Notes: a model not told the origin generated them from the letters alone. A stretch of 58,615 bases of DNA from Candidatus Omnitrophota bacterium (GCA_023227925.1 JALOCE010000002.1:1-58615); one strand, 5' to 3'; positions 1 through 58,615 are shown, numbered from the stretch's first letter. Made by a program: numbers and translations.

Positions 1-206
1 AGTGATGACAATACTCCGCGCGCCAGCGTGAGTGATGACAATACTCCGCGCGCCAGCGTGAGTGATGACAATACTCCGCGCGCCAGCGTGAGTGATGACA
101 ATACTCCGCGCGCCAGCGTGAGTGATGACAATACTCCGCGCGCCAGCGTGAGTGATGGTAATACTCCGCGCGCCAGCGTGAGTGATGGCGATGATCGCGC
201 GCCCGA
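1..206 (+). repeat. tandem array of the dispersed 30-nt unit AGTGATGACAATACTCCGCGCGCCAGCGTG (6 full copies plus a degenerate 7th); runs off the left edge
   Basis: Exact 30-nt periodicity read directly at 1-30, 31-60, 61-90, 91-120 and 121-150. Copy 151-180 has GGT instead of GAC. Copy 181-206 is decayed. Confidence 0.97.
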
Positions 207-933
207 ATATACAATCATCTCGCGCGACGACGGCGAGAGCTGGGAGCAGATATGGCGCGGCGCAAGCGATGTTTGCTGCACAAAGGGGCGCGTTTATTGC
301 TTTGAAATATCCGAGCGTGCGATTAATTGGGTCGCGATCGATGTAAGCGCGCGCGATTCAGCACCTGCGCGCCACACATTTACTCGCGCGGTGCCCATTC
401 CAGAGCGCGAGGCGAAAATGACAAGCGTTTGCGACATATCGCGCGCGCGCGATGGCGCGCTTTGGGCGTACTTTTATTCGATCGCGCCGCAATATAATCG
501 CGACTGGGATATCTCATTTTCGCGATTGCGCGTTGATTTTACTCCCGCGTCCGCGTTCGTACCCGCGTTTGAGCATCTACCCGACGCGCGCGTCAACACT
601 CTCCGCATCGCGACGCCGCGCGTATCAAAAGAACGCGTGTGGCTGGCGCACGCGAGTGCCGACCGCGAGTGCGCCGAAATATGTATGCTCGATTTGCACG
701 CGCGCGCGGAACAGTGGCGCGCGTTGGAATTCACCGATATCGGTGGCGATGGTGGGCAAAAAATGCGCGATATTTACTCCATCATCGCGCGCGATGATAT
801 GCTTTATGCGCTGGGCCGCGACGCGCGCGGGTGCACCGTTGTAGGCGCGATTAATACGAGGACGGGCGCTGTGGAAGTGAGCGCGTCGCGCGCGGACATC
901 AATCCGCGCGGGACATTTGTCTTCGCGCGATGA
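1..933 (+). CDS. repeat-array protein, 5'-partial (frame open to window edge); (SDDNTPRASV)n followed by a globular C-terminal part
   Basis: Frame 1 is open from nt 1 to TGA at 931-933. The track start at 28 is a GTG inside the repeat. An Asp-box-like SRDDGESW motif follows the array. A T6 run at 955-960 lies downstream. Confidence 0.6.
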   Translation, partial: SDDNTPRASVSDDNTPRASVSDDNTPRASVSDDNTPRASVSDDNTPRASVSDGNTPRASVSDGDDRAPEYTIISRDDGESWEQIWRGASDVCCTKGRVYCFEISERAINWVAIDVSARDSAPARHTFTRAVPIPEREAKMTSVCDISRARDGALWAYFYSIAPQYNRDWDISFSRLRVDFTPASAFVPAFEHLPDARVNTLRIATPRVSKERVWLAHASADRECAEICMLDLHARAEQWRALEFTDIGGDGGQKMRDIYSIIARDDMLYALGRDARGCTVVGAINTRTGAVEVSASRADINPRGTFVFAR

Positions 934-973
934 TAATCCCGGCGCGCGGGGTTATTTTTTCGCAGTGGCGGCC

Positions 974-1129
974 CTACTGCTGCTGTAATTTTGACGTCGC
1001 CATGATCATGCGGATGGCGTCTTCCTCGCTCATCTCGTTCGCGCTCGACATGACCGCGATCGTAATCGCGACCGCGATTATTATCGCGATAACGGCCCCG
1101 ATGATAAGCGCGAGGGTCCAATTATCCAT
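974..1129 (-). CDS. small single-pass membrane protein (51 aa)
   Basis: ATG at 1129 is preceded by AAAATATACGCGCGCG. There is a hydrophobic stretch LALIIGAVIAIIIAVAITIAV. The upstream A8 (1150-1157) fits a T-run terminator for the preceding gene. Confidence 0.45.
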   Translation of the reverse strand: MDNWTLALIIGAVIAIIIAVAITIAVMSSANEMSEEDAIRMIMATSKLQQQ

Positions 1130-3581: not shown

Positions 3582-3827
3582 TCATACGACGATAACGCGC
3601 GCTTCGTCTGCGGGCGCCGTTTTCGCGCGATCGCCGGCCGCCGCACCCACCGCGCGCGCGATTGGCGCGAAACCGCGCGTTTCGTCATCCAGTGGCTCGA
3701 ATAACGCTGCGAGCGTCCCGAGCTTCATTCGCGTATGATTGACGATATGCATCGGGCGTGCGGTGCCCGCCGGCACGAAATTCGAAACGAGCAGCGCGAG
3801 CCGGTGATATTCCTCGAGTTCATCCAT
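3582..3827 (-). CDS. hypothetical protein (81 aa)
   Basis: ATG at 3827 is preceded by CATATATTCGCGGCGCG. It is divergent from 3842(+) with only a 14-bp spacer. Confidence 0.4.
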   Translation of the reverse strand: MDELEEYHRLALLVSNFVPAGTARPMHIVNHTRMKLGTLAALFEPLDDETRGFAPIARAVGAAAGDRAKTAPADEARVIVV

Positions 3828-3841
3828 CGCGCCGCGAATAT

Positions 3842-4365: not shown

Positions 4366-7032
4366 TTATTGTGCGAAATATGGGTCCTCGCCAATGAACC
4401 CGTCCAGAATGGAAACCTGATCCGAATGAATATCGTACGCGAGCGATTCACGCCGCAATTTACCCGCGAACGAGCCGAACACTGCAGTTTGCGCGTGCCC
4501 GATAAGGTCGGGCGATGACGCGCCAATCGTCGCGCGCGGAAACTTTGATTCAACGGCGTCCGCGAGCACGCGCAACCCAGTATTGGTGCGATAATAACCC
4601 TCGCTCGCGTTCCAGCGCACGACGTTGAGGCGATAACCATCGTAAATGCAGCGCTTGTATCGCAAAATCGCATCCGCGAGCGCCGCTGCATCGCGTCTGC
4701 GATCGCGCGCAAGATCGATGAGCGATACCCCGCGATATATATCGAACCCAAGCCCGATTAGCGCGCTATTGGTCGCATCGCGCGCCTCTATGAATTTCAG
4801 CGCCGAATCCGTGCTGAGGCCCATTTTCGCGCACCATCCCTCGAACATCACGATCATATCCGCAGATTTCTCGCGCGCGAGGACCACATCGAGCGACGCG
4901 CCAATAACGAGCGCGTCGAAGAAAGTATCGCCGAGGATCGCGTGCCACGCGTTCATCGCGTCAATCGCGCCGGATGGTTCCGCGGTCTCGGATGCCGAAT
5001 CGAGCAGCGGAAATATATCACCATATGCCGCGCTAACATTAATTTGCGGCGCGGTCATAAGCGATAGGTGGGCGGCGACTTCGCCGGTGGCCGTTTCGCC
5101 AGCGCGTTTTAAAAATGAGGATAGCGCGATCACGACGAGATCGGCGACGCGATAGCCCCACGAAAACCCCGCGAGGACCATGCGCAGCGCTTCGATCGAC
5201 TCGATGAACGTGATCAATTCTATCGCGACGCGCCCGAGCCGTGTGATGCCGACGCGATTCGCGGGCGCGCGCTCGGTGGTTGCGAGAAATTCCTCGAGAT
5301 CGGGCGTGAATACGGGCGGCGCGCGCGAAATGAAGCCGAGTGCGTACGCGTGATTGAGCCCATCGAGGAGAATATCGGGCTGCGGCGCATCGGGCATATC
5401 GATATCATCGACGCGAAAATATGGGACGCGACGGTCGTCGCGTGCTTGCGCTGCGCGAGCGTCGTCTTGCGCTGCGCGAGCGTCGTCTTGCGCTGCGCGA
5501 GCGTCGTCTTGCGCTGCGCGAGCGTCGTCTTGCGCTGCGCGCGAGTCGTCGCGTGCGCTACTGCTGGTCACGCGCCCTTTTTGATCGCGCGCGGGCGCCA
5601 ACCAACTCGCGCCGCCGAGAGCGTGCTTTATTTTTTGCTGATCGAATACGATTTGCAGGATAATTTTATTGAGACTCGCGGTCGCGATATCCGGCAGCTG
5701 TTCCTCGCTCAGCTGCGCGTGCATCCCCTCGGTATACAGCGGATAAATTACGCCCGGGAATTTGCGCCCGACGCGCCCCCAGCGCTGCGTGATGCGCGAC
5801 ATCGGCGCTGGTTTCGAAATAAGCACGTCCGCGCGCAGATTCGGATTGTATTCGTTCCCGCGATGGAAGCCCGAATCGATCACGTATCGCAGCGTATTGA
5901 ATGTAATGCCCGTCTCCGCGATATTAGTCGCGAGAATTACGCGCCGCTCGGGGCGCGGACATACTTTCGCCGTGCCGGGCGGGAGTTCGCGCAGCGGAAG
6001 CGTGAGCTGGCGCACCTCGAGGTTATCGCCGCCGAACGTTTCGCGCGTCAAGATCACTATCTGCGCGCACGTTTTACCCTGGCCTACGCGGCGATTATTT
6101 TCGCTAACCAGCGTGGTGCGCGTATTTATTATTTCGTATTGCCCGGGCAAAAATACGAGAATATCATCGCGCTCCGTCTGCTCGCCGATAATCGCGTCCG
6201 ATGGCGACGCGCCCGGCATCCACGTTTCGCGCGGCGCGGGCGCGCTGTCCATCACATCGAAAACGATGCGCTTGATCGTCTCGACTATATTACGCGATGG
6301 TTCGCGCGGCCAACGCCACTCGCGCGCGAATGATTGCGCCGGGTTGCAGATAATAATGTTCTCGAGTACCGCGCTCACGTCGCGCGCGGGCGCGATATCA
6401 AGGAAATAACGCGCGAATTTCGGCGCATCGATCGTTGCGCTCATCAGAACGATGAACGGGCACCCCGGTAAATGCGCGTTGCGATGGAGAAATCCCTTGA
6501 GCGCGGCGAACGTGATATCCGCCTCGAGCGATCGCTCGTGCGCCTCGTCGATCAAAATATAGCGATACAGCGACATTATCTCCGCGTCGGTGTAGATTTG
6601 CAGCTGGACCGCGAGAATCCCGAGCGTTGCGCTCAATAGGCTTATGCGGCGCGGCCGCAGCTTGGAAAAGCGCGTACTCCAGCCGATGGTATCGCCAATA
6701 TGCAGCGTCGCGCCATATTTCGGTATCGCGACGATCTGATGTACGTTCGCGATTGCGGTGATGACGCGCGGCTGCGTGCAAATAATGCCGCCGCCGGAGA
6801 CGTATCGCCCGCGCACGAGTGCGCCGTAGATTTCCGATGGAATGGTAATTGATTTGCCGCTCGCGGTGCCAGATTGGATGACGAGGACGCGATTCGCGAC
6901 GCCTTGACGTCCCTCGCGCTCGCGCAACCACCCGATAATGTATTCGTACGGAACGTGTTTATCCAGCGCGCGCTGGAGCTCAGGATCACCATTTGGCGCG
7001 CGTAATTCACCGCGGCGCTGCAGCGTGAACAT
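4366..7032 (-). CDS. DEAH/RHA-type (NPH-II-like) RNA helicase
   Basis: Motifs SGTASGKS (I), LIDEAHERS (II), MSATID (III), ILATNIAETGIT (V), QRWGRVGR (VI). The track start 7071 is GTG. ATG at 7032 is preceded by GCGCGTCAAATATAACATCGCG. Confidence 0.9.
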   Translation of the reverse strand: MFTLQRRGELRAPNGDPELQRALDKHVPYEYIIGWLREREGRQGVANRVLVIQSGTASGKSITIPSEIYGALVRGRYVSGGGIICTQPRVITAIANVHQIVAIPKYGATLHIGDTIGWSTRFSKLRPRRISLLSATLGILAVQLQIYTDAEIMSLYRYILIDEAHERSLEADITFAALKGFLHRNAHLPGCPFIVLMSATIDAPKFARYFLDIAPARDVSAVLENIIICNPAQSFAREWRWPREPSRNIVETIKRIVFDVMDSAPAPRETWMPGASPSDAIIGEQTERDDILVFLPGQYEIINTRTTLVSENNRRVGQGKTCAQIVILTRETFGGDNLEVRQLTLPLRELPPGTAKVCPRPERRVILATNIAETGITFNTLRYVIDSGFHRGNEYNPNLRADVLISKPAPMSRITQRWGRVGRKFPGVIYPLYTEGMHAQLSEEQLPDIATASLNKIILQIVFDQQKIKHALGGASWLAPARDQKGRVTSSSARDDSRAAQDDARAAQDDARAAQDDARAAQDDARAAQARDDRRVPYFRVDDIDMPDAPQPDILLDGLNHAYALGFISRAPPVFTPDLEEFLATTERAPANRVGITRLGRVAIELITFIESIEALRMVLAGFSWGYRVADLVVIALSSFLKRAGETATGEVAAHLSLMTAPQINVSAAYGDIFPLLDSASETAEPSGAIDAMNAWHAILGDTFFDALVIGASLDVVLAREKSADMIVMFEGWCAKMGLSTDSALKFIEARDATNSALIGLGFDIYRGVSLIDLARDRRRDAAALADAILRYKRCIYDGYRLNVVRWNASEGYYRTNTGLRVLADAVESKFPRATIGASSPDLIGHAQTAVFGSFAGKLRRESLAYDIHSDQVSILDGFIGEDPYFAQ
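5428..5554. repeat. private 21-nt minisatellite (GCGCTGCGCGAGCGTCGTCTT x4 exact plus degenerate flanks) encoding (DDARAAQ)n inside the DEAH helicase
   Basis: Exact copies at 5448-5468, 5469-5489, 5490-5510 and 5511-5531. Unit length is a multiple of 3. Confidence 0.95.
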
Positions 7033-16074: not shown

Positions 16075-16091
16075 ATAACAATCGCGCGAGA

Positions 16092-35763: not shown

Positions 35764-35772
35764 TTTTTTTTT
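35764..35772 (+). terminator. T9 run after stop of 34960..35700
   Basis: TTTTTTTTT 64 nt after the stop. Confidence 0.45.
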
Positions 35773-42157: not shown

Positions 42158-42700
42158 ATGTCGAGCGAACGCTGCGATGATGGTAATAATTCGCGCTCGC
42201 GTGCGAATGATGACGCGCGAATACGAGCCGCGCGCTTGCTGGTGGCGGCGCCAATTATTGTTGCATTCGCGGATAACAGCGCGCGCGATGGCGGCGGCGC
42301 GCGCGATAAAATTCTCTCACTTATGCGCGATGAATGGAAGCAAACCGGTGAGATTGTTATGCGTGACTCTGCGCTCGCGCCGTACGACGCGCTGCATCTG
42401 CGAATGAGTAAGGTGCCGCGCGGATACCGCATCAACATCGCGGTTCCCGCGGGATTCGAGCGCGCGCTGCGAGAGAAATTCGCGCTATTCCGCGCAGCTG
42501 CGCGATCGTTTTGGCGCGAAATCGCGGACGATATGACGCGCGCGCGATGCGATGAAGAGCCGCGCGGGCTATGCGAGACAGAATCCGCTGTTTATTGGTA
42601 TACTCCGCGCGCGAACGATGATGAATTTTGGGTCGGGATCGTCGGCTACTTCACGGATAGCTCCGGGAAGAAATATATGGTCGATGGAAAGCGCTGTTGA
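42158..42700 (+). CDS. hypothetical protein
   Basis: ATG is preceded by CCATTATTAAAT. Divergent from 42118(-). Contains a degenerate repeat-like YTPRANDDE (42597-42625). Confidence 0.5.
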   Translation: MSSERCDDGNNSRSRANDDARIRAARLLVAAPIIVAFADNSARDGGGARDKILSLMRDEWKQTGEIVMRDSALAPYDALHLRMSKVPRGYRINIAVPAGFERALREKFALFRAAARSFWREIADDMTRARCDEEPRGLCETESAVYWYTPRANDDEFWVGIVGYFTDSSGKKYMVDGKRC

Positions 42701-43088: not shown

Positions 43089-43184
43089 CTATGCGCGATT
43101 GTTGTCGCGCGTGACCCCCCATTTTTTTCGCGCATACGGACTCGCGTCCACGCAAAAATGAAGACAATCCCTCGCAAAATACGC

Positions 43185-46499: not shown

Positions 46500-46530
46500 A
46501 ATGATGGTAATACTCTGCGCGAGTGATGGG
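46500..46530 (+). repeat. dispersed repeat, degenerate intergenic copy
   Basis: AATGATGGTAATACTCTGCGCGAGTGATGGG lies between stop 46454 and start 46560. It is followed by GAATATACTCCGCGAA-ATG. Confidence 0.7.
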
Positions 46531-46559: not shown

Positions 46560-47333
46560 ATGTTATCATCGGCAGTGAAGGGGGTCGCAGATGCACTCGG
46601 CGCGGCTGGCGATGATGAATTTACCGCGCGATTGACGCGCTTTACGCACCTCGGCGCGCGCTATCTGGCCGCGCTCAGCGCGGATTTGCGCGAGAAAATG
46701 ATCGGTATTGTTCTCGATGAATTATGCGCGCTTCGCGTTGTTAATTCAACTGCGCGCGCAGGCGAGATCAATCCGCGCGCGACGGCGCGCGCCATTGAAT
46801 CAATCTCGCGCACAATCACATCCGCGAGCGATATTGAGCGCGCGAGCTGGGGGCATAGCGCGGCGCGAAAAATACCGCGTGCGTGCGTGAAAATCGTATC
46901 GCGCGCGCTGGATGCGCTTCCGCGTGTCGGGACAATTCTCGAGCTGGCGCCCGCGGGATGTGAATTTATCGCGCGCGACGCGTTGGGAACACGCGATTCC
47001 AGCGCACGCGTCATCCACGAATCGCGCGACCTACCATCGCTCGCTGATTGGACGGCGACAGCGAGCGCTCGCGATATACAAACAATTATCATCAACGCGG
47101 TGGGCTTGCGCGCGCTGACATACGTTTTCGCTGAGTTCGCGCGTGCGATGGTGGCGCGCAATCCCGCGGTATTCGTTATCATGGTCCACGACGCGGATAT
47201 TGTGATCAACTTCTTCCTCGCGATCGTAACGACGCGCGTTGGCTGCGCTAGCGGGGAGGGTATAGCGCTGACCATCATCTCGGATAGCGAAAAAAAGATC
47301 GTAAGCGTGAGCGATATCGTCGGGATTGATTGA
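46560..47333 (+). CDS. hypothetical protein
   Basis: ATG is preceded by GACGAATATACTCCGCGAA. T6 at 47386-47391 lies downstream. Confidence 0.5.
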   Translation: MLSSAVKGVADALGAAGDDEFTARLTRFTHLGARYLAALSADLREKMIGIVLDELCALRVVNSTARAGEINPRATARAIESISRTITSASDIERASWGHSAARKIPRACVKIVSRALDALPRVGTILELAPAGCEFIARDALGTRDSSARVIHESRDLPSLADWTATASARDIQTIIINAVGLRALTYVFAEFARAMVARNPAVFVIMVHDADIVINFFLAIVTTRVGCASGEGIALTIISDSEKKIVSVSDIVGID

Positions 47334-47382: not shown

Positions 47383-49191
47383 CTATTTTTTCGCACCGCG
47401 CGGTGCGGTTCCTCGCAGTGCTCGCTGTGCTGCGAGCGGAATTTGCTGCACCGGCGGCGGCTTATCGCGCGGGCGCGATTTTGCTGCCGTTGGAGGCGGA
47501 CCCAATCGCGGCGCGCGCGTAATAGCGTCGGTTGCGGCGGATGCGACATTATTCGCGATTACGCTCGCAAGCGCGTCTTGTGGCGTTGCGAATGGCGCGA
47601 AGAAGAACCCATGCAGGCGTTGCTTTATTGTGCGGCGCGTCATTGTGAGCGCGCGATCGAGAAGGGAAATCGCGCTCGCACTCGCGCTCGCGTCGGTCGC
47701 GCTAGGATCGCGCGCGCGGACGTATCGCGCGAGAATATCCAGCGCGAGCGCGCAATCACAGCAGCCATCGAATCCCGGCACGCTATCGAAATGCGCGCGG
47801 TTATTTTCGACGAAGCGGAATTGGCGCATCAGATTGTAGTAAAACATGGCGTTCTCATGATCGCGCGCACTATATTCGCGCATGCGCGTGTACTCGCGCG
47901 GCGTCGCGACAAGACGCACCTCGGATGAGGCCGCGCCCGGAAACGCCTGCAAATTAAGCGCGGCACAGTCAATAAATGGATATTTGCGCGCGCGATAAAG
48001 CGCGAGCAGATCAACGCCGAATCGCGCGTTATATGCGGCGATGGTTGCGCCGTAAATGCCCGCGCCGCCATATTCGACGATGGAATCCAGATCGCTCGGA
48101 TTCATGAACGGCGTGCGGAATTTGAGCATGCACGCGTCGGGTCGCAATATATCGACCCACGTGTGCTGCCACGCGTTATTTGCGAGAATATCTATGTCGC
48201 TCGGGCTATCCGATTCTTCCTCGTCGGCCGGGTTGCCTCTGCGCCGTTGCGGCGCTTCCGCGGCGCGAATATTGGTGCGGATATCCGAAATAAAATAGAC
48301 GCGCTGCGGGTGGTCGCGCGCGAGGTATTTGAGCGCGCGCGCGAGATCATCGGTGAATAGGTCCTCGATGATGTAGAACGTGTATTTCGGCTCGCGGACG
48401 ATGACCCGCGCGATTTCATCGGGCGAGAGATGCGCGAGCGTTCGCGCGACGCCTTTATTCGCGCGAATTATGCCGTCGCGCGTCGCGAAATCGATCTCGA
48501 GATTGGGAAACTCGGTCGCGCTCGCCGCGCGGAAATAAAGGCGGTCGCGCGGATTACTGCCCATGATATTATGCTCTTGCGGGTCGATGAGAATGAATTT
48601 CGCGCGCGGGAACATATTCGCCAGCATTTGGCGCGTGTGTCCGGGGCCCGATCCTGCATAAATGACGTACGCTGTACTGCCGGATGATGGCGGCGCGTCA
48701 TCACTCACGGCAAGCCGCGAAGTATTGTCATCACTCACGCTCGCGCGCGGAGTATTGTCATCGGCGCGAATGCATTCGCAGGCGTAATCCGTGAGGAATT
48801 GTATCTCCGATAAGAGCAATTTGAGCTGCCCCACGTGCAGCGACGTACGCGCGTGCCGTATCAATCGATACGGCACGGCGCCCGGAATATCGGCGACGCG
48901 AATTATCGGGGCAGCATCGGGCGGCTGTGGCGCGCGAGTTATGTCCGCGATCGCGCTCATAATGTGCGGTTGGCTCAATTCGCGAATCGAAGCGCATATT
49001 CGGGAGCAGTGCGCTCCGCGGTCGCGATGGGGAACGTCGTCGCGACCGCTACCACCGCCGCCGACGCCGGGGGTAGACGCGGTTTTCATCGTATCCGCGC
49101 GAGATATAGATCGCGGGCGCGCATTCAAAATTCCGATTATTAGCGTAACTATGCACGCGAGCACCGCGACGACCGCGGATATGATGATCAT
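47383..49191 (-). CDS. VP39/FtsJ-like mRNA cap 2'-O-methyltransferase with N-terminal TM segment
   Basis: YAGSGPGHT (SAM motif I), LIDP, FISDIRTN, CMLKFRTPF. N-terminal IIISAVVAVLACIVTLIIGIL. ATG is preceded by GCGCGCGAAATATAA. Confidence 0.72.
   Translation of the reverse strand: MIIISAVVAVLACIVTLIIGILNARPRSISRADTMKTASTPGVGGGGSGRDDVPHRDRGAHCSRICASIRELSQPHIMSAIADITRAPQPPDAAPIIRVADIPGAVPYRLIRHARTSLHVGQLKLLLSEIQFLTDYACECIRADDNTPRASVSDDNTSRLAVSDDAPPSSGSTAYVIYAGSGPGHTRQMLANMFPRAKFILIDPQEHNIMGSNPRDRLYFRAASATEFPNLEIDFATRDGIIRANKGVARTLAHLSPDEIARVIVREPKYTFYIIEDLFTDDLARALKYLARDHPQRVYFISDIRTNIRAAEAPQRRRGNPADEEESDSPSDIDILANNAWQHTWVDILRPDACMLKFRTPFMNPSDLDSIVEYGGAGIYGATIAAYNARFGVDLLALYRARKYPFIDCAALNLQAFPGAASSEVRLVATPREYTRMREYSARDHENAMFYYNLMRQFRFVENNRAHFDSVPGFDGCCDCALALDILARYVRARDPSATDASASASAISLLDRALTMTRRTIKQRLHGFFFAPFATPQDALASVIANNVASAATDAITRAPRLGPPPTAAKSRPRDKPPPVQQIPLAAQRALRGTAPRGAKK
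48697..48762 (-). repeat. dispersed repeat, ~2 units, reverse on + strand, sense in the methyltransferase (DDNTPRASVSDDNTSRLAVSDD)
   Basis: GTCATCACTCACGGCAAGCCGCGAAGTATTGTCATCACTCACGCTCGCGCGCGGAGTATTGTCATC. Confidence 0.9.
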
Positions 49192-50098: not shown

Positions 50099-50222
50099 TG
50101 CGCGCGCCGCGCGCGATTATTTTTTTCGCTCACGCGCGCATTTATCGCTCGCTCGCTCAAGCGCTCGCGTGCGCATTTATCGCTCGCTCGCTCAGCGTTC
50201 GCGCGCAAGATATACTCGCGGA

Positions 50223-50954: not shown

Positions 50955-52310
50955 TCAAGTCTTTCTTTTTTTGCCCGCGCGCGGATGCGATGGCGCCGGC
51001 GTTGCGCTGGTGGCGCGCGCTCGCGCGAATACTGGGTCGAGAAACTGATGCGCGAGAATAGTCCGCGCGTGCTCGCGATCCGCGTCCATATACTGCAGAC
51101 CCAGGCGCAGAAACTCCTCTATCTGGGTCATTTGGTTGCGGTTAATATTATGGTAATTCGCCGACATAAACTGCGTGATCGTGCCCGATTCGAGAGCGCG
51201 ATGATAGCGCGGCACGCCATTATGATAAAATTCGCGCGCGCGATGGTCGCCGCAGAATATTTCGGGCGGTTTGCCGATGACGCGCCACATGAGAACGACG
51301 TGCGCGTAGAACATCGGAAAATCAATATCGTCCGCGACATCATCGCCGCGCGATTCGGTGTCGGCGCAGCATGAGTCGCTGTCAGCGCTGCGCGAATCGT
51401 GTGCGAGTGATGGCGATGCTTCGCGCGACGAGGCGTCGCTCGCGACCGCGAGCCCGGTAAGATCGAAGCCGTAATCCGCACCATCCTCGCCGTATACGTC
51501 GAATAAATTATCGCCCGTTATGATCGAGAATATCGTGGCCATCGCGGACCATATATCCGCGCCGTGCGAATATGGTCGCCCGATCAATATTTCGGGCGCG
51601 ATGAATGGGATCGTTCCGACGCACGCCGGCTGGAGCAGATCGGCGCGCGCGAGCTCACGCGCTGATCCGAAATCGCATAGTATTGTGTCCAGCGACGTTA
51701 CAGTTTTCGCGTCGAACGCCGGCGCGGCGCGGATCATAATGTTGCCGGGCTTGATGTCGCCGTGAACGATTCCCGCCGCCTGAAGGGCGTCGAGCGCGAG
51801 GAATAAGTTCTTCGCGATGGTGAGCGTCGCGAGCGCGGGTAATCCCGCGTCGAATTGCGCGACGTGCTCGCGTATGAAGTCCTTCAATCGCATCTCGTAG
51901 CGCGGCATTATAACGAACGGTATCGTTTCGAGGGCGTGCGCTGCGCGCAGCGTACTGTGCGCGATCGCGCTACCGAAACCGTCAACGCGCTCGACGTAAT
52001 CGCGCGCGCCGGCGGTGGTTGCGAGGGTGCGATCAAGCGCGCGCATGGCGAAAATAGTGCGGCGGAATTGGCGCGCGCTGCCGAATATTTTCACAACAGC
52101 GCAGTCAGAATGGTGCTCTGTCGGCGAATCGCATGGCGCGCACTCGTAAACGCTGCAAAACGTACCGCTCGCTATTTTATCGCCGATGGTATATGTGCGC
52201 GCCGCGACGGCGTCAGCGACGCGCGCTGCGTCGCCGCCATTCGTTGGTTGCGTTGTTATCCATCGCTCGGCGAGAATTGTCTGTCCGGTGATATGTTGCT
52301 GCGCATCCAT
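50955..52310 (-). CDS. Ser/Thr protein kinase
   Basis: VVKIF (Lys), HGDIKPGNIMI (catalytic loop), CDFGSA (DFG), FIAPE (APE). ATG at 52310 is preceded by CCCATATACATTGCG. A Ser/Asp-rich insert holds a degenerate antisense repeat (51406-51429). Confidence 0.85.
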   Translation of the reverse strand: MDAQQHITGQTILAERWITTQPTNGGDAARVADAVAARTYTIGDKIASGTFCSVYECAPCDSPTEHHSDCAVVKIFGSARQFRRTIFAMRALDRTLATTAGARDYVERVDGFGSAIAHSTLRAAHALETIPFVIMPRYEMRLKDFIREHVAQFDAGLPALATLTIAKNLFLALDALQAAGIVHGDIKPGNIMIRAAPAFDAKTVTSLDTILCDFGSARELARADLLQPACVGTIPFIAPEILIGRPYSHGADIWSAMATIFSIITGDNLFDVYGEDGADYGFDLTGLAVASDASSREASPSLAHDSRSADSDSCCADTESRGDDVADDIDFPMFYAHVVLMWRVIGKPPEIFCGDHRAREFYHNGVPRYHRALESGTITQFMSANYHNINRNQMTQIEEFLRLGLQYMDADREHARTILAHQFLDPVFARARATSATPAPSHPRAGKKRKT

Positions 52311-52402: not shown

Positions 52403-53815
52403 TCATTTCTTCGGCGCCGCCGCCACTCTCTTCTTCGTGACGCGCAATACGCGAATGATGCGCGCGATTTCGCCGCGCGCGGCGAGATGAGGGAAATGGC
52501 GCTTCGCGATGCATCGCAGTCGCGCCGAGCATATTATCGCGCGCGAGAACTTGAGAAACGTGTTTTTCTTGATGCCGCCGGACATCCCATCAATATCGCG
52601 GATCGCGATCGGGTAGTGCATCGCGACGATAATAAACCATATCGCGCCGACGATTTTGCTCTGTAGCTGGCTGCGCACGCCGATATAATGGCGAATGGAG
52701 CTCATTACGACCGCGCGGATGAATTTTATATTCGCGCGGTTAATCGTGTCGCGCAGTAGTGTCGCGATATCAGCGTGCGCGGCGGTGTTGCTCGGCGATT
52801 CATCGGGCGCGGTTTGCGCTGGCGGCTCATCGGACGCGACAGACGAATCACTCGCGGGCGCAGATTGCGCGATGAATGCGCCAAGCGTTTTGCCGTAATA
52901 GAACGCGATTTTATTGTCGCATATCTGCGCGTCATCGTCGAGCGTAATGTTGCCATCCGCGGATTGCAGAAGCAGTTGCTCGTAACCGCGCGAGAAACCT
53001 TCTGTGCGCAGCCCCATCATCTCGGCGATCTCTTTCTTGCTCCGCTGCTCCGTGCGCCCGCATTCGGCGAACAATATTGCCGCGAGAATCTCATTCTTGA
53101 CATCGCCGCGCCGCACGTATGGCGCGCCCTTGGCGAGCGCGTTGCGTTGGATATCATTATAAACGCGCGCGGTCGCGATAATTGCCGCGGTCGACGGCGC
53201 GAATGGCGCGAGCGCGCCCGCACTATCGATCCGCGAGCTATTGAGAACGTACGGTAAGCCTCGGCGCGCTGCAATCACGCGCAAATAGGTTTCGCGGCGC
53301 TCGATTAGGCTCTCGTACACGTTATTGCGCTGGGCTTTCATCGGGTCGCTCGAGCTATAATGGCGGCGCGGATCGCGTTTATGCGTCATATCGCTCGTGA
53401 GATGATCATCGATATGCGGCGCGATGCGCTTGCAATGCGAGCACACGTATTCATCGCCCTGCGTGTCCATCGCGATCGCGCACGACGGGCATATATTCGA
53501 ATTCGCGCCACCGCGCACCGGCAATGGAGCGTCGCTATCGTCTGGCGCGTCGCTCGCGCATCCATCGCGAAGAAACTGCTGTGCAAGATCGCTACCGGGC
53601 GTCATATCGGGCTCCATGGCTATCGTTTTCGCGGCTTCTTCAAATTTCGGGCGGGCTTTGCTTTTAAGCACGCGGGCGTTTAAATCGCGGGCGCGCCAGC
53701 GCGCTGGCGTGGGTGCGCGCGGAGTATTGTCATCACTCGCGCGCGGAGTATTGCCATTACCACCCAACGTCGTTCCCGATGCGAATAACGACCGGCCCGT
53801 CGTCCGCGTCGTCAT
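52403..53815 (-). CDS. TFIIB-like transcription factor
   Basis: Zinc ribbon CPSCAIAMDTQGDEYVCSHCKR is followed by cyclin-fold-like helical repeats (ILAAILFAECGRTEQRSKKEIAEMMGL). The track start 53863 is GTG. ATG at 53815. The N-terminus carries two repeat units. Confidence 0.55.
   Translation of the reverse strand: MTTRTTGRSLFASGTTLGGNGNTPRASDDNTPRAPTPARWRARDLNARVLKSKARPKFEEAAKTIAMEPDMTPGSDLAQQFLRDGCASDAPDDSDAPLPVRGGANSNICPSCAIAMDTQGDEYVCSHCKRIAPHIDDHLTSDMTHKRDPRRHYSSSDPMKAQRNNVYESLIERRETYLRVIAARRGLPYVLNSSRIDSAGALAPFAPSTAAIIATARVYNDIQRNALAKGAPYVRRGDVKNEILAAILFAECGRTEQRSKKEIAEMMGLRTEGFSRGYEQLLLQSADGNITLDDDAQICDNKIAFYYGKTLGAFIAQSAPASDSSVASDEPPAQTAPDESPSNTAAHADIATLLRDTINRANIKFIRAVVMSSIRHYIGVRSQLQSKIVGAIWFIIVAMHYPIAIRDIDGMSGGIKKNTFLKFSRAIICSARLRCIAKRHFPHLAARGEIARIIRVLRVTKKRVAAAPKK
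53715..53761 (-). repeat. dispersed repeat, 2 units (24 nt), reverse on + strand; sense in the TFIIB-like gene (GNGNTPRASDDNTPRA)
   Basis: GCGCGCGGAGTATTGTCATCACTCGCGCGCGGAGTATTGCCATTACC. It also overlaps the last codons of 53757..58181. Confidence 0.9.
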
Positions 53816-56800
53816 CGCCGTGATCCAGATCGAACGAATCGAGAGAAAATGGGTCCGTTTCACCGTCGCGCGCGTCGTCGTCCGCGGGCACTATTTCGGC
53901 GCCCGCGTCCTCATATTCATCATAGAGCATCGCCGCAGGATCGGACGCGGCGATATCGAAATCGTCATTTGCGAGCTTCGTCCCCTCGACGACGCTCAGG
54001 CTGAAGCGATCGCCGCGGATGGTTATGTTTTCGCGCGCGAAAAGGTGCGCGACGAACGTGCGCGCGAACACCGCGGTTAGCGGCCGCGATGGCGCCGCCG
54101 CCGCGCCATCCGCGCGCGGCTTGTATTGCGCGAGCGCGCTGAGAACGCGACACAGTGTTTCCAGATAGAAATCGACGATTTTGGCCGTTTTATCGTGATA
54201 ATGCTCCGCGAACATCAATATGACGCGCGCGAGAATAATATCGCTCGCGAACGCGGATGCACCCGCGCCATCGGGCTCGAGATTGCGCACGATCGGTGCT
54301 ACAATATCACCCAGCGGCGGAAGCTCGGACGCCGCGCGATCAAACGCGGGGCCGCCGCTCGCGTATTCGCGCTTGAGATCATCCGCGAATTGCGCGACCG
54401 AGCGCGTGATTGCACCGCGGCGACCACTGCGCAACAGATCACCGCGGATGACATTATAGAGCGCGAAAATCTCGAAAATGTACGAGCGTAACGCGAAAAT
54501 GCGCGCGCTGACGCTGGATTTGGGGACGGGCGCGACGTATGATTCATCCGCGAGCTTGTCGCGCGTTAGACCCTCGCGCGCGCCGAGCGTTTGGAAATCG
54601 CGCCTCTCAATGCCGAACACGGCGGCTGCGTCGACGAGAATTTCATAATTGAGCGACCACGGTTGTCGCGCGATTGCGCGCGCTATTGTATCAATATCCT
54701 CATCGCGCTTGGAAACGCGGCGCCCAGCGATGGTCGTAATGGGCGCGGGCGACGCGATATGCTCGCGGAATTTCGCGATATGGCGATCGAAATAGGCGCG
54801 ATCGTAGCTACGCGCGAGCGCGGATGAATATCCGCATTTAGTGCATGCGGGCGCGATCGCGTCGGTTGAGCTCGCGAACGCGTGCGGACCATCGGCGGGG
54901 CATCGCGCCTCGTAGAACTGGTAGAAGTTCTCCATGGCCGCACGCGCGTCTATGGCCGCGCGAATGGCGCGATCGTCGAGCGCGGACGTTTTCGATTGGA
55001 GAATGCCGCACGCGGCGCATTTTTTGTCGATATACGCGATATCCGCGCGCGCGAATGCGTCGGACGCTTCGGGCGAGCCGAATTTTACCTCGATTATCGG
55101 TCCGGGCGCCACGGTAGGCGCGAAAATGAGAACGTTCCACACATGCGCGACGCCATTCTCATCGTATACTGCGCCGAGTGTACGCGCGCGCGTTGGCGTA
55201 TTATACGATGAAAATGGCGGCGCGTGCGCGCGAATGATTGAGATTTCGGGTACGCGCGTCGCGGCGCCATCAGCGCGACCCGCGCGAGCGATGGATACGC
55301 TTTCGGCGGCGCGTTGCGCGGCGTTCTCGGCGGAATGGCGCGCGCGAATGTCCGTTATGGCGCGATCGGTGGTCGCGATCGCGTAATCGAATAAGCGATG
55401 CTCGATAATCTCGCGCAATCGCGCAACGATACCCGACCGCGCATTACTACAGCGCGCAAATAGAGGCGCGAGGATATTTTTCGGGTCACTCGGCTTCTCG
55501 GGGAGCGCCGCGAGCGCAGCGTACTCGTAATCAAACGGGTCTTTATTATTGCGCGCGAGTGATGGTAATACTCCGCGCGCAAGCGCGAGTGATGGTAATA
55601 CTCCGCGCGCAAGCGCGAGTGATGGCGCGGCGGTGGCCTGACGCGCGAATATGCCGGGGCACGCGTTGTGAATAATCGCGATTAATGGGTCATACATCGC
55701 CACCGCGCGGTAATCGCGAGGCGGTGATTCGAACGGCATATCCGCGGCAACGGTCCCGAGCTCGCGAATTGCCGCGCTAATGCGCGCGCCGATAACATCG
55801 CGCGTGAATCCGGGGATCTGGTTCAGCGCAACATTCTCGACGAGTGCGATCTTATCGATCGCGTTTTTGATCAAAATCGCGCGCGCGCGTTTGTCATCCG
55901 AGTCGCGCGGGAGCGTGACTCCATCGAATATGATCCCCATGCGCTCCGCGTTGACGATCGCGTCCGCGAAGACATAAATCGCGATGTAGACGCGCAGGCG
56001 CGCCGAAAGCTCGGACGCGAGACTTGTTTGCGCGATGGCTATGCGTCCCTCAATCATCTCGATATGCGGATAAATATGCTGTGCGACGTTGCGCGCGAAT
56101 GCGGCCTGATCGGTAACGCGCGTGGCGCGGATGAAGCGCGAAATCATATTAATCTCGCGCAGAATATCATCCGCGAGCTCTTTATTCTCGGACGTCGCGC
56201 GATCAACATCATCGGAGACCGCGAGCGCGTGCTCGAATTGCGCGCCGCAAATGCGGCAATAATAAAGCCCGCGCCCCGGAATGCGATCGATATATTGCGC
56301 AATGCGATCGCGCTCGTTCTTGCGCGTCCCATGTTGCGCGATGACATTCGCGATGTCGAGCGTGTGTGGGCAAATCGCATCCTGCGAGCACAACGCGCAT
56401 TTTATCATCGCGCTGGGGTTCTCGGACACCGCGTTAGCGAGAATTTTCGAAAGAACCGCGAGCGCGTCCGCGATGGCGCGCGCGGTAGTGGAGCGCGCGA
56501 GAGTCGCAACCGCGCGCATATGCTCGCAGTGCGCACGCGCTGGCGCGGTACGGCGGAAGGCGGCGTAAGACGCGAGAATGAACGCGCGCTCATCGGGCGA
56601 TAGCCGCGCGAACAATTCGTGCTCACTCGCGACGCGCAGGCGAATGCCGCGCGCCACAAGATTCCCGATTTCGGGACCCATGCCGCCGAATGGATCGCGC
56701 GCTATACTGCGCGCTATTTTACGCGGGAAGTTATCTTCGATGAGAGACGCGAGAATTTCGAGGCGGTTCATGTTCGCGCGATGATCCGCGATCGCACGTA

Positions 56801-58181
56801 CCGTTGCCGCGCGCGATGCTGCGGCGGCGCGAATCGTCTCTGCTGCGTCTGCCGCGGCAGGGGCTGGGTCGTCGAGATGCGCGATGCGAAAGTATGTGTC
56901 GGATGCACCCGCGCGCATAAAATCCGCAATGATGGACGCGCGATCGCGCGCGTATGGAAGCGCGAATCCGAGAAGGCGCGCGATTTCGAAGAGCGATTGC
57001 GCGCGCGGATCGGTGGGAACAACATCTATTTCCTCGCCCTGTGCGTTATCCGCGAAATCGCGGTCGTCGGCGTGCGGGGCCGTTGTCGCGTCGGGGCGCG
57101 CGAAATAATATTGCTGGAATAGGAGCCGCAGGTGGAGAAATATCTTCGCGTACGTCGCGGGCGGAGGAGTGGGAGCGATAGCGGGAGTAATAGCGGGAGC
57201 GGGAGCGACGCTATCGCTGGCCATCGAAATGATGCGCGGAAGATATGGTTCGCGCGGATCGAATGCAAACGCGGGCCGCTCTGGTTGTGCGCCGATGGTC
57301 GTAATCGCGAGCGCGCCCGGAATCACGCCGACCGCGAACGCGCTGGTCTGGCTCGGCGCGAAGGCGAGTTCCATTATTTCGACTGAGATATTGGGCGGAA
57401 TGACGGTCGCGATCGCATCGCGTTGCGTGCCCGCCATTGTTGCGATTATGCGCTGCGGGAACTGTATTCCGGTTGTTTCGCGCGCGCGCGGCTGCGTTGT
57501 CGCGGGCGCTCCTTGGCTTGTTGAGGATAACGGCACCGCGGTCGCGATGGTTATTGTCGGAATCGCGGTTATGCGCTTGGTGATGCGATGCGCGCGGACC
57601 GTTTTTCCTCGTATTATTTGCATCAGATTGCTCTTGCGCGCGCGCTCGGCGAACGTTTCAGTCGTGATCGGGCGGCAGCGCGGGACGATTATCGGCGCTG
57701 GGAACAACCGCGAATCCTGCGCGATAAGAATGAGTTGGCGCGCCATTATCTCGGGATTCGGGTGTCGCCGAAACGTCGCGCGCGTGATCGCGGCGTGATT
57801 CGCGAGCACAACGAAATGGCGCGCGAGCGCGCGATCGCCGTCAACATCGAGCATGAATAGGCGCTCTTTATCCGCGTCCGGTGCCGAATAGATATCCGTG
57901 AATTGGCGCGCGGTGTCGTATACCTCGATTATGCTTTCGTCCGCGCTCGTGGGTCTGTCGCGCGCCTGCGCACCGACATCGCGCGCAGGCACGATACCAG
58001 ATGATTTAGTGCGCGGTAACGCGTTACCGCGCCGGCGCGTATTTCCATTCGCGCGCGCGGGCGAAATTTGAAACGGCGCGAGATCCGGATATTCATCGCG
58101 CGCGAATTCATCCCCACCGCGCAGCACGCCACCTATTCTCTCTGCGAGCCGCGGCGCGTAGTCAAAACTGACGTCAGTCAT
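53757..58181 (-). CDS. large (1474 aa) protein with several CxxC zinc-ribbon-like pairs and an acidic tail; function unknown (possible large transcription-factor subunit)
   Basis: It is a long ORF of normal composition with KCALCS...CPH...YYCRICG, KKCAACG and CTKCG. ATG is preceded by AAATATATAGAAATCG... The VETF-L/A7/G1340L assignment is only a size- and context-based guess. Confidence 0.8.
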   Translation of the reverse strand: MTDVSFDYAPRLAERIGGVLRGGDEFARDEYPDLAPFQISPARANGNTRRRGNALPRTKSSGIVPARDVGAQARDRPTSADESIIEVYDTARQFTDIYSAPDADKERLFMLDVDGDRALARHFVVLANHAAITRATFRRHPNPEIMARQLILIAQDSRLFPAPIIVPRCRPITTETFAERARKSNLMQIIRGKTVRAHRITKRITAIPTITIATAVPLSSTSQGAPATTQPRARETTGIQFPQRIIATMAGTQRDAIATVIPPNISVEIMELAFAPSQTSAFAVGVIPGALAITTIGAQPERPAFAFDPREPYLPRIISMASDSVAPAPAITPAIAPTPPPATYAKIFLHLRLLFQQYYFARPDATTAPHADDRDFADNAQGEEIDVVPTDPRAQSLFEIARLLGFALPYARDRASIIADFMRAGASDTYFRIAHLDDPAPAAADAAETIRAAAASRAATVRAIADHRANMNRLEILASLIEDNFPRKIARSIARDPFGGMGPEIGNLVARGIRLRVASEHELFARLSPDERAFILASYAAFRRTAPARAHCEHMRAVATLARSTTARAIADALAVLSKILANAVSENPSAMIKCALCSQDAICPHTLDIANVIAQHGTRKNERDRIAQYIDRIPGRGLYYCRICGAQFEHALAVSDDVDRATSENKELADDILREINMISRFIRATRVTDQAAFARNVAQHIYPHIEMIEGRIAIAQTSLASELSARLRVYIAIYVFADAIVNAERMGIIFDGVTLPRDSDDKRARAILIKNAIDKIALVENVALNQIPGFTRDVIGARISAAIRELGTVAADMPFESPPRDYRAVAMYDPLIAIIHNACPGIFARQATAAPSLALARGVLPSLALARGVLPSLARNNKDPFDYEYAALAALPEKPSDPKNILAPLFARCSNARSGIVARLREIIEHRLFDYAIATTDRAITDIRARHSAENAAQRAAESVSIARAGRADGAATRVPEISIIRAHAPPFSSYNTPTRARTLGAVYDENGVAHVWNVLIFAPTVAPGPIIEVKFGSPEASDAFARADIAYIDKKCAACGILQSKTSALDDRAIRAAIDARAAMENFYQFYEARCPADGPHAFASSTDAIAPACTKCGYSSALARSYDRAYFDRHIAKFREHIASPAPITTIAGRRVSKRDEDIDTIARAIARQPWSLNYEILVDAAAVFGIERRDFQTLGAREGLTRDKLADESYVAPVPKSSVSARIFALRSYIFEIFALYNVIRGDLLRSGRRGAITRSVAQFADDLKREYASGGPAFDRAASELPPLGDIVAPIVRNLEPDGAGASAFASDIILARVILMFAEHYHDKTAKIVDFYLETLCRVLSALAQYKPRADGAAAAPSRPLTAVFARTFVAHLFARENITIRGDRFSLSVVEGTKLANDDFDIAASDPAAMLYDEYEDAGAEIVPADDDARDGETDPFSLDSFDLDHGDDDADDGPVVIRIGNDVGW
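55558..55627 (+). repeat. dispersed repeat, 2.3 x 30-nt units forward on + strand but ANTISENSE to the host gene (read as PSLALARGVLPSLALARGVLPSLA)
   Basis: AGTGATGGTAATACTCCGCGCGCAAGCGCG at 55558-55587 and 55588-55617. Confidence 0.95.
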
Positions 58182-58221
58182 TTATCTTAGAGGAAGCGAT
58201 TTCTATATATTTCGATTCAGT

Positions 58222-58615
58222 ATGTCCGCATCACAAGAACGCCCGCACGAGGGAGGTATATTGCGCTCGCGGAGAAGTTTGCGCGGCGCGGATGGCGGAG
58301 CGCGGCCCGCGATTGCGCCGCAACAGAACACATCGACGCTCGAGCGCGTTCTCGCCGAGGCGCGAGAAACGTTCGCGCAGAGGCCGCTATTATCGCGCGA
58401 TATTTCATCGTTCTTTGGTGATCGCGGGTTCGCGATCAAGATTGCGGGCGATGGTAATACTTCGCGCGCAAGCGTGAGTGGCGATAGCACTTCGCGCGCA
58501 AGCGTGAGTGGCGATAGCACTTCGCGCGCAAGCGTGAGTGGCGATAGCACTTCGCGCGCAAGCGTGAGTGGCGATAGCACTTCGCGCGCAAGCGTGAGTG
58601 GCGATAGCACTTCGC
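58222..58615 (+). CDS. repeat-array protein, 3'-partial (not in ORF track because no stop within window)
   Basis: ATG at 58222 is preceded by TCTATATATTTCGATTCAGT. My manual translation (MSASQERPHEGG...FAIKIAGDGNTSRASVSGDSTSRASV...) is open and in the sense frame of the repeat to the window edge. The track's minus ORF 58203..58610 is the antisense shadow. Confidence 0.55.
   Translation, partial: MSASQERPHEGGILRSRRSLRGADGGARPAIAPQQNTSTLERVLAEARETFAQRPLLSRDISSFFGDRGFAIKIAGDGNTSRASVSGDSTSRASVSGDSTSRASVSGDSTSRASVSGDSTSRASVSGDSTS
58447..58615 (+). repeat. tandem array of a 30-nt variant unit (AGTGGCGATAGCACTTCGCGCGCAAGCGTG, about 5.6 copies); runs off the right edge
   Basis: The first unit carries GATGGTAATACTTCG as in the dispersed copies. 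Later units (58477-58506, 58507-58536, 58537-58566, 58567-58596) are identical to each other. Confidence 0.97.

Follow-up and report, generated by a model that had tools for sequence, protein, structure and literature searches.

A short repeat unit dispersed through the genes of an African swine fever virus-like giant virus

The stretch of DNA analyzed here, which is 58,615 nucleotides (nt) long and filed under Candidatus Omnitrophota bacterium (GCA_023227925.1 JALOCE010000002.1:1-58615), is a contig of an uncultured giant virus of the Nucleocytoviricota that resembles African swine fever virus (ASFV) and is of Asfuvirales type. In this window, by which we mean the whole stretch at its full length, one repeat unit of 24 or 30 nt recurs at 15 or more loci, most of its copies lying inside genes that are otherwise unrelated. 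We favor, with moderate confidence, the reading that these repeats constitute a lineage-specific, dispersed coding minisatellite of this ASFV-like virus.

The repeat unit, its descent and its distribution

The 14-nt core of the unit, AATACTYCGCGCGC, has 21 exact matches in the window. An earlier note, made by a model from the sequence alone, had picked out this recurring element and proposed shuffling as a check. The element proved real and lies where that note had placed it: composition-preserving shuffles yield only 0.02 cores on average, with a maximum of 1 in 100 dinucleotide-preserving shuffles. When up to two mismatches were allowed, 59 matches were observed, compared to 10.4 in the shuffles. 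An nhmmer profile, built with one unit per locus and run on the window, recovered all main loci at E<0.01 and added one weak match at 42178-42196. Two other assemblies are available for comparison: an ENA assembly (67.5 kb) that is a near-identical copy of the window (99.97% identity), and a Logan assembly of another run (L002, 14 kb) that is a near-identical copy of part of it. Both ends of L002 fall exactly within arrays of the repeat, at 34710 and 48726, as do the window's own two ends. Such breaks at arrays, and the extreme richness of the genome in CGCGCG, might suggest chance or an assembly artifact, but the shuffle counts and the presence of identical copies within open reading frames (ORFs) in these independent assemblies of different samples effectively refute that explanation, which we regard as hardly credible.

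The unit is 24 nt long, AGT GAT GRY AAT ACT YCG CGC GCN, and an optional 6-nt extension, AGC GYG, brings it to 30 nt. Units adjoin head to tail, without unique spacers, in arrays of up to at least 8 units. Tandem Repeats Finder delimited arrays of the 24-nt unit at 15365-15428 (2.7 units) and 24513-24604 (3.7 units), and of the 30-nt unit at 1-187 (6.2 units), 34652-34739 (2.9 units), 48697-48762 (2.2 units), 55553-55625 (2.4 units) and 58459-58615 (5.2 units). Single copies typically consist of one unit plus the next AGTGATGRY, so that GATGRY stands on both sides; the left-hand AGT is often absent and the right boundary is variable, some copies ending straight after CGCGCGC.

A peptide-level search, made without reference to DNA similarity, returned 27 loci. 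In these, Thr is encoded by ACT in all 27, Arg by CGC in 27, Asn by AAT in 24 and the leading Ser by AGT in 20 of 21, in a viral genome that uses ACT for 10% of Thr and AGT for 7% of Ser. Among 63 distinct units, nucleotides 13-21 (ACT CCG CGC) are near-invariant and the silent, four-fold third positions are fixed in 61-62. The sharing of rare ACT and AGT codons by the copies, the lack of the unit in relatives and the lineage specificity of the inserts therefore indicate spread as DNA, and the sequences point to descent of all copies from one DNA sequence rather than to peptide convergence. The earlier note had argued the same from the codons, and the ACT and AGT counts, the invariant silent sites and the relatives lacking the unit bear it out. 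Diversity at codon positions 1, 2 and 3 of the 63 units is 0.18, 0.22 and 0.28, and common variants alter residues (D/G, P/S/L and A/V/T/G); thus, no sign of purifying selection on the peptide is apparent among the units. In a protein motif family the peptide is kept while codons drift and recurs in orthologues, whereas here the codons are identical and the peptide varies like the silent sites.

An ancestral peptide motif, which the earlier note had named as the alternative to be checked in orthologues, can be set aside. Orthologues do not carry the peptide, no counterpart exists in relatives either as DNA or as peptide, and a search of limited sensitivity in a large protein collection yielded only this virus's own proteins. 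Look-alikes do occur in the same loops of two relatives of ∼40% identity, HHRDTPRPNV in P0009 (L003, ∼2110-2150) and GSDRNTPGIC in P0078. They share 3-4 residues, and the DNA of the P0009 look-alike, GACACTCCTCGACCG, matches 11 of 15 core positions; these look-alikes are probably due to chance, though unexplained.

The 20-mer GATGRYAATACTYCGCGCGC had no match in IMG/VR, which argues against an origin from a virophage or another virus, and matched 28 metagenome loci. Half of these (14 of 28) sit on 12 contigs of one JGI metagenome, Ga0265297. The 12 contigs have the same guanine-plus-cytosine (GC) content as the window and overlap it only through the repeat, L012 ending in the window's left array and L005 beginning at its right array. 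Their ORFs include an NCLDV major capsid protein, topoisomerase II, a C962R-type primase, VLTF3, TFIIS, a capping enzyme, an AP endonuclease and a NifS-like protein, which is an ASFV-like gene set. On the basis of matching GC, gene set and repeat, we take these contigs as the same genome, of which they appear to be other parts. Together with the window they hold at least 45 loci and >100 units in ∼190 kb, a density that is biased upward because the extra contigs were chosen for carrying the motif. The same variant array (SGDSTPRV; AGTGGCGACAGCACTCCGCGCGTG) occurs at the end of L021 (∼14798) and the start of L029 (∼26), so that the two are probably neighbors in the genome and the repeats can be used for scaffolding. 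The remaining 14 loci were rejected as evidence of the repeat in other organisms: they are single matches on contigs of differing GC, several with the same unrelated flank, as expected of chance.

No such repeat was found in the syntenic relatives L003, L032, L033 and L034 (37-55% protein identity), and a search of a 5.8-billion-protein collection with the repeat peptide, which has limited sensitivity, returned only two proteins, one encoded by the window and one on a Ga0265297 contig. The repeat family is lineage-specific and is spread across the viral genome. The earlier note recognized no described giant-virus repeat family in it, and our literature searches likewise turned up no account of a single short unit scattered in frame over dozens of genes of a giant virus.

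The assignment of the window to an ASFV-like member of the Nucleocytoviricota follows from its gene set. The best solved-structure match of its RPB2 is ASFV RPB2 (E=1e-241, compared to 1e-107 for eukaryotic Pol II and 1e-29 for vaccinia). The 1474-amino acid (aa) ORF (53757-58181, minus strand) is homologous to ASFV M1249L, a protein found in solved ASFV RNA polymerase complexes, with E=7e-20 across residues 1002-1246. The window also encodes the catalytic subunit of poly(A) polymerase, an ASFV-p49-like protein, a UvrD/PD-(D/E)XK helicase-nuclease, a DEAD-box helicase, an Mre11/Rad50 (SbcCD-like) fusion, a Herpes_ori_bp-type helicase, a VP39-like cap methyltransferase, a protein kinase, thymidine kinase, dNMP kinase, a Skp1-like protein and an ERCC4 nuclease. 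Its GC is 60%; the nearest relatives share its gene order, with a GC of 43-55% and protein identities of only 37-55%. The NCBI copy of the P0093 contig (Ga0265297_10004318, L008), which appears to be part of the viral genome, is labeled as a 'Candidatus Omnitrophica bacterium' metagenome-assembled genome, and copies of some relatives carry Omnitrophota or Methylomonas labels. Given the clearly ASFV-like gene content, the contigs so labeled look mis-binned.

Reading frame, orientation and placement in host proteins

One frame of the unit's sense strand reads SD(D/G)NT(P/S)RAS(V/A). The second sense frame is always closed by TGA TGA, and the third is closed in 30-nt units with GCGTGA and open in 24-nt units (VMVILRAR); all three antisense frames are open. 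Frames were assigned by scoring all six around every locus against a codon model that had been trained on the window. There are 29 solid loci within confident ORFs, and 25 of them use the sense frame; ∼85% of in-ORF copies read SD(D/G)NTPRAS. One or two of the 29 use the +1 frame (L009 4664, and at L021 10768 the first unit) and three are antisense (window 15857 and 55558, and L022 539), to which a degenerate copy in the kinase gene at 51406 can be added. All four antisense copies use the same one of the three open frames, ..LARGVL(P/S)S... Non-coding copies lie at window 46500, at three sites in L011 and in a 31-nt-period array beside a T run (L005 6606-6718), and one pair of units, outside the window in the apparent same genome, is spaced 28 nt apart.

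These results qualify several points of the earlier note. Its description of an element colonizing ORFs as an in-frame peptide fits the 25 sense loci but not the antisense, +1-frame and intergenic copies. Three of the copies on its list (15854-15896, 55553-55627 and the degenerate 51406) lie on the plus strand within minus-strand ORFs and are read antisense as ..LALARGVL(P/S)S.. rather than as SDGNTPRAS. Its rule that unit lengths are always multiples of 3 holds throughout the window but breaks down elsewhere in the apparent same genome, with the 31-nt period and the 28-nt spacing.

We asked whether the hexamer GATGRY, as a target site, could by its own position in genes produce the frame bias. 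Among its 229 occurrences in genes, 44% are in the sense Asp-Asp/Asp-Gly frame and 41% are antisense. The 25 of 29 sense-frame loci depart from this GATGRY-position model (P=3e-6) and from equal use of the open frames (P≤7e-12). Target-site preference was therefore rejected as the whole cause of the bias, and a selective filter is needed in addition; the use of a single antisense frame is predicted neither by random insertion nor by GATGRY position.

In the window, 11 of 13 intact loci are on the plus strand, including two antisense copies within minus-strand genes. This distribution, and a core of 9-14 nt that is conserved beyond what the peptide needs, silent positions included, would suit a cis-acting DNA signal, that is, a binding, packaging or recombination-hotspot site that is scattered, like uptake sequences or Chi, through a nearly all-coding genome in the least harmful frame. 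However, orientation is mixed within the apparent same-genome contigs L013, L014, L022 and L026, which contradicts the Chi-like strand polarity hinted at in the window (11 plus versus 2 minus). The loci are also unevenly spaced, some gaps of 8-15 kb being free of copies; a selected site would not be expected to be amplified into tandem arrays of 5-8 units or to have rapidly decaying flanks, and relatives with the same gene order hold no equivalent. The silent-site invariance (61-62 of 63 units) fits such a signal, but recent spread would give the same result. A cis-acting signal is thus, in our estimation, quite improbable.

Where orthologues could be aligned, the copies fall in variable parts of the host proteins. 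In the primase-helicase, the copy (residues 616-628) occupies a loop that differs in length and sequence across 13 orthologues. In an AlphaFold2 model of this protein (mean predicted local distance difference test score, pLDDT, of 79), residues 619-636 are predicted as coil with pLDDT <50, between a helix (599-616) and a strand (639-642). The copy in the VP39-like protein stands between the conserved FLTDYA motif and the YAGSGPGH S-adenosylmethionine-binding motif, where orthologues hold 0-10 unrelated residues. In the SbcCD-like fusion, the array at 24493-24606 corresponds to a 40-residue insertion that is absent from all 6 orthologues, and the copy at 22855 lies, by orthologue alignment, in a variable linker. 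By these alignments, the copies in the three proteins are lineage-specific inserts in variable loops. This agrees with the claim of the earlier note that copies fall between conserved motifs, and the structural mapping that it had proposed, carried out for the primase-helicase, likewise places the copy in a region predicted to be low-confidence coil. In the M1249L-like ORF, the copy is found in a variable linker whose length in the orthologue is similar.

The excess of sense copies, far above random and target-site expectations, and their location in exposed, disordered loops, where short linear motifs act, raise the question of whether the peptide itself is the object of selection. In such a case SD(D/G)NT(P/S)RAS would be a functional module spread by gene conversion and positive selection, either a Thr-Pro phosphorylation or docking site for a viral Ser/Thr kinase or a packaging or localization tag. 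The virus does encode a protein kinase, and the faint look-alikes in the same loops of two relatives (P0009 and P0078) would also be accounted for. But the units show no synonymous excess by codon position and their common variants change residues, and the antisense, +1-frame and intergenic copies hold the same DNA without the peptide. Moreover, within the sensitivity of the protein search the peptide is absent outside this virus, as it is from orthologues, and the hosts (methyltransferase, helicase and nuclease) share no evident pathway. We therefore consider a functional module rather unlikely; the repeat peptide is probably a tolerated spacer.

Array growth and the proposed route of spread

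Each array is internally uniform and has its own unit variant, such as ..CGCGCGTTAGCG.. in L014, GATAAT..GCAAGCGCG in L026, GACGAGAGTACT in L013 and GGCGATAGCACTTCG at the window's right edge. This pattern indicates expansion in place, so that the arrays, as far as their sequences tell, grow where they stand. The rare unit NTSRLAVSD is found both at window 48713, in the VP39-like gene, and at L009 1697, in a different small ORF, together with a neighboring unit and a similar upstream flank. Its presence at these distant loci indicates that multi-unit tracts are also copied from locus to locus.

Comparison of the window with the ENA and Logan assemblies revealed six single-nucleotide differences, one T9/T10 difference (an intergenic T run at 35764 that is 9 bases long in the window and 10 in ENA and Logan alike) and one 39-nt in-frame indel. 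The last is an extra 39 nt (13 codons) in the ENA assembly relative to the window and Logan, in the gene at 39776-40417 (minus strand). It is unrelated to the repeat family and is flanked by a 9-nt direct repeat, GCGCGGCGC (window 40262-40270; L001 7047-7078), which indicates that microhomology events occur in this viral population. The earlier note had proposed looking for copy-number polymorphism in long reads or other isolates. No array length change was found across 33225-56454 (∼23 kb) between the three assemblies, and the SbcCD arrays of strain P0075 (99% protein identity) are identical to those of the window. At the right edge, the window, which ends there, has at least 5 SGDSTSRASV units compared to 1 in ENA (L036) and 1 in L005, both of which read GDGNTSRASV-SGDSTSRASV-SSDSAKK. 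This difference is either real copy-number heterogeneity, which would explain the assembly breaks there, or a contig-end artifact.

A direct explanation for the dispersal would be a non-autonomous mobile element of the kind of the Rickettsia palindromic or repetitive extragenic palindromic (REP) elements: a viral or host nuclease or transposase would recognize AATACTYCGCGCGC and insert the element at GATGRY with duplication of the target. The conservation of the DNA core beyond coding need is compatible with this, as are the direct GATGRY repeats that flank single copies (with identical hexamers at window 15866, 45012 and 48756, L009 4670 and L014 9322), the occurrence in both orientations, in several frames and between genes, and the high copy number within one lineage. 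However, the flanking GATGRY 'duplication' is indistinguishable from the repeat's own periodicity, since the hexamer is also the start of the next unit. The right boundary is variable, with some copies stopping straight after CGCGCGC, and no terminal inverted repeats are visible in the aligned copies or in DNA folds of the units. In seven unit variants folded, the 30-nt units gave −4.7 to −8 kcal/mol (z-scores between +0.35 and −3.2), and the 24-nt unit −0.8 kcal/mol (z=+1.45). A hairpin or REP-like structure was accordingly rejected as a defining feature, the ACTC..GAGT stem being weak, non-significant in most variants and absent from 24-nt units, and no Rfam match was found in the window at gathering thresholds. 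No transposase, HNH, GIY-YIG, IS-family domain or homing nuclease was found in the scanned window ORFs or in 91 ORFs (∼128 kb) of the apparent same-genome contigs, in a genome that is incomplete. Arrays of up to 8 identical units, finally, typify minisatellites and not transposition. Thus, of the colonization that the earlier note described, spread at the DNA level stands, but no hallmark of transposition (conserved hairpin, inverted repeats, fixed boundary or transposase) was found with it, and we judge a mobile element to be rather unlikely.

The dispersed coding minisatellite that we favor would instead gain new loci where GATGRY or CGCGCG offers microhomology, through template switching or ectopic repair in the course of recombination-dependent replication or repair. 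A DNA end whose last bases are GATGRY, which encodes Asp-Asp or Asp-Gly, or CGCGCG, a ubiquitous hexamer that encodes Arg-Ala, would anneal to an existing array, copy a whole number of units and then return. As the unit is 24 or 30 nt, the gene would gain 8 or 10 codons without a frame shift. Slippage or unequal exchange would then lengthen or shorten the array, and selection would remove copies that damage the protein, leaving mostly the hydrophilic SDDNTPRAS in disordered, variable loops and tails. With 662 occurrences of CGCGCGC in 49 kb of coding sequence, a result of the extreme codon bias of the viral genome (Arg is CGC in 75% and Ala GCG in 73%), microhomology is available almost everywhere. 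The recombination genes of the window, namely the Mre11/Rad50 fusion, the UvrD protein with a PD-(D/E)XK nuclease domain and the ERCC4 nuclease, also count in favor of this scheme.

Several observations weigh against it. No empty site or seeding event was seen, the only other strains being ≥99% identical with the same copies. The sole hint of copy-number variation, at the right edge, could come from the contig end. A strong filter has to be assumed to obtain 25 of 29 sense-frame loci where 44% is predicted (P=3e-6), and the restriction of antisense copies to a single one of three open frames is not predicted by the model. The near-invariant DNA core, moreover, could reflect constraint at the DNA level and not just recent spread.

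A more far-reaching proposal, which we think unlikely but worth stating, is that the unit is selfish DNA, self-propagating yet compatible with coding, which would place copies of its 24/30-nt cassette genome-wide into GATGRY (Asp-Asp or Asp-Gly codons), always as a whole number of codons, its identical tracts serving as recombination points or as a peptide tag. If so, essential replication and transcription genes would have been colonized without inactivation, and the dozens of identical tracts would act as recombination points that reshuffle genes or, alternatively, as a common peptide tag for the viral kinase or packaging machinery. The Nucleocytoviricota would thereby have their first reported family of in-frame 'intragenic parasites', far shorter than any other such element known.

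Individual loci, significance and comparison with known systems

The window begins inside an array (1-206, plus strand) in which a 30-nt unit (AGTGATGACAATACTCCGCGCGCCAGCGTG) is repeated at least 6.2 times and is accompanied by a degenerate one. The array encodes SDDNTPRASV in the left-edge ORF 1-933; L012, from the same metagenome Ga0265297 as the other contigs, ends in this same array. A weakly scoring Cys-rich ORF (15058-16116, minus strand) carries two loci: a variant array of 2.7 24-nt units at 15361-15430 (minus strand), read in sense as GESTPCAS, and one unit plus the next AGTGATGAC at 15854-15896 (plus strand), antisense to the ORF and read as SSLALARGVLSS. A single copy, SGDTPRAS, lies at 18012-18041 (plus strand; profile E=0.004) near the C terminus of an acidic ORF (17568-18113), and a single unit with a partial next one (ADDNTPRTSASDD) at 21136-21174 (plus strand) in ORF 20356-21342, which has a weak RING-finger match (E=0.008). 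The SbcCD-like fusion (21634-26202) holds, both on the plus strand, the single copy in its variable linker at 22855-22890 (GEGNTPRASGDS) and the array at 24493-24606, in which RASDGNTP is repeated over 3.7 units of 24 nt.

Further along, an array of ∼3.5 units of both 24 and 30 nt (NTSRAS and NTPRASV) lies at 34636-34740 (plus strand) near the C terminus of ORF 33007-34893, at one of the two breakpoints of L002. In ORF 42158-42700, a weak relic, YTPRANDDE, at 42597-42625 (plus strand) is accompanied by the second weak match at 42178-42196 (E=0.007 each). The copy in the Herpes_ori_bp-type primase-helicase (43158-46454) is a single unit with a partial next one (RDGNTSRASVSDG) at 45003-45041 (plus strand). 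The degenerate intergenic copy at 46500-46530 (plus strand; E=0.0003), between the genes at 43158-46454 and 46560-47333, has a stop in its sense frame. The VP39-like cap 2′-O-methyltransferase (47383-49191, minus strand) contains an array of 2.2 units of 30 nt (ADDNTPRASVSDDNTSRLAVSDD) at 48697-48762 (minus strand), where L002 has its other break.

Two 24-nt units (GNGNTPRASDDNTPRA) at 53715-53761 (minus strand) had been assigned by the earlier note to the inside of a TFIIB-like gene. They sit between the stop of the 1474-aa ORF and the ATG (53605) that the public annotation gives to the TFIIB-like gene, and are either 5′ non-coding or part of an N-terminal extension of that gene; the GGTAAT of the first unit, in another frame, forms the TAA stop (53759-53757) of the 1474-aa ORF. 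Within that M1249L-like ORF, an array of 2.4 units of 30 nt at 55553-55627 (plus strand) is antisense and read as PSLALARGVLPSLALARGVLPSLA. At the right edge, one canonical unit followed by at least 5 variant 30-nt units (SGDSTSRASV) occupies 58447-58615 (plus strand) in an ORF that runs, like the array, to the end of the window. Three possible relics among the loci listed in the earlier note are individually non-significant (profile E=0.2-0.7): DGDTPCD at 26535-26552 (minus strand) in the UvrD-like gene, 34270-34287 (plus strand), and the degenerate 51406-51429 (plus strand), antisense to the kinase gene. Among the note's host labels, those of the SbcCD/Rad50-Mre11 fusion, the UvrD-like protein, the kinase, the VP39-like cap methyltransferase and the Herpes_ori_bp helicase were supported, the RING label weakly so, while 'NTase-like' and 'TFIIB-like' were not confirmed.

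The window also holds other in-frame tandem repeats with unrelated units, at 5445-5550, 17868-17996, 28453-28520 and 38870-39026, as does L009 at ∼3750-3840. Among them, the DEAD-box helicase gene has a 21-nt unit 5 times, the acidic ORF a 57-nt unit 2.3 times and the UvrD-like gene an 18-nt unit 3.8 times, and a helicase-like ORF of 804 aa in L009 repeats GAGKRRD 4 times. The viral genome is generally prone to coding tandem repeats. Two intergenic tandem motifs with AT-rich cores within GC-rich sequence, at 20257-20323 and 50127-50206 (GCGCGCGCTATTTTTCGCGC × 3, and a 35-nt unit with CATTTATCGC × 2.3), may be promoter or terminator elements.

The core genes of giant viruses are commonly regarded as being under tight constraint, yet here their loops readily accept insertions, the same foreign cassette of 8-10 codons being present in the primase-helicase, the cap methyltransferase, the Mre11/Rad50 nuclease and the homologue of the RNA-polymerase-associated M1249L. 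This points to a possible recombination-driven route by which new low-complexity segments appear in a viral genome and spread through it. Identical tracts of 24-30 nt, present in dozens, provide enough homology for the single-strand-annealing recombination of large DNA viruses and could therefore drive deletions, inversions and gene chimeras. The repeat also breaks short-read assemblies of this virus at predictable places; given these breaks and the Omnitrophica-labeled contig, it is a useful marker for re-joining and re-classifying contigs. Should an active copying mechanism or a peptide function prove true, the family would represent a new class of intragenic element in eukaryotic viruses.

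Several known systems invite comparison, and the present family is not a miniature inverted-repeat element, a REP element, a CRISPR array or a MIMIVIRE-type repeat. A CRISPR array was rejected because the units abut head to tail and have no Rfam match. MIMIVIRE in mimivirus R349 consists of 15-28-nt units in one gene, with identity to virophage sequence. The present repeats are similar in that short units recur inside a giant-virus ORF, but they lie in dozens of genes, and their 20-mer lacks an IMG/VR match, its other metagenome matches being single chance ones. The 'submariner' elements of Pandoravirus and the repeats of Pithovirus are miniature inverted-repeat elements in giant viruses. Like them, the present family is lineage-specific, high-copy and non-autonomous and has invaded a giant-virus genome. 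However, those elements measure 100-200 bp or more, carry palindromes or terminal inverted repeats, lie mostly between genes and are associated with transposases, and none of these features was found here, terminal inverted repeats included. REP elements and REPINs are extragenic imperfect palindromes, whereas most of the present copies are intragenic and have no conserved hairpin. Bacterial uptake sequences (USS, uptake signal sequences, and DUS, DNA uptake sequences) and Chi sites are single sites of 8-12 nt kept by a known DNA-level function. They share with the present unit a short DNA motif scattered in coding sequence, in tolerated frames and in less conserved protein parts, but they occur without tandem amplification, with an orientation or density that tracks replication or uptake, in contrast to the mixed orientation and irregular density seen here.

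Closer parallels are found among the coding tandem repeats of large DNA viruses, which include the central variable region of ASFV B602L and the reiterations of herpesviruses. The low-complexity regions of monkeypox virus (PMC11026394) are likewise coding tandem repeats. All of these, like the present repeats, are short units placed head to tail and in frame in viral ORFs; slippage or recombination is the presumed source of their changes, and they break short-read assemblies. Coding minisatellites of this kind have frame-preserving units of 10-60 nt, as here, but each is confined to one locus with its own unit per gene, whereas the present unit recurs with the same codons in unrelated genes (15 or more loci in the window, and 45 or more in ∼190 kb).

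For dispersal, the nearest counterpart is provided by the Rickettsia palindromic elements, in-frame inserts in many unrelated genes (PMC10969869), to which the earlier note had likened the repeats. As family membership the comparison fails: those elements are ∼150 bp long (∼100-150 bp by the usual definition), palindromic with a stable hairpin, and bacterial, whereas the present unit is 24-30 nt long, has no conserved hairpin and belongs to an ASFV-like giant virus, where it forms head-to-tail arrays of up to at least 8 units and has ∼15% of its in-ORF copies antisense or in another frame. As an outcome, however, the parallel holds. In both cases a short family has spread in frame through many unrelated, often essential genes, adding a peptide without breaking the ORF, at loop sites compatible with the fold, and with non-coding copies as well.

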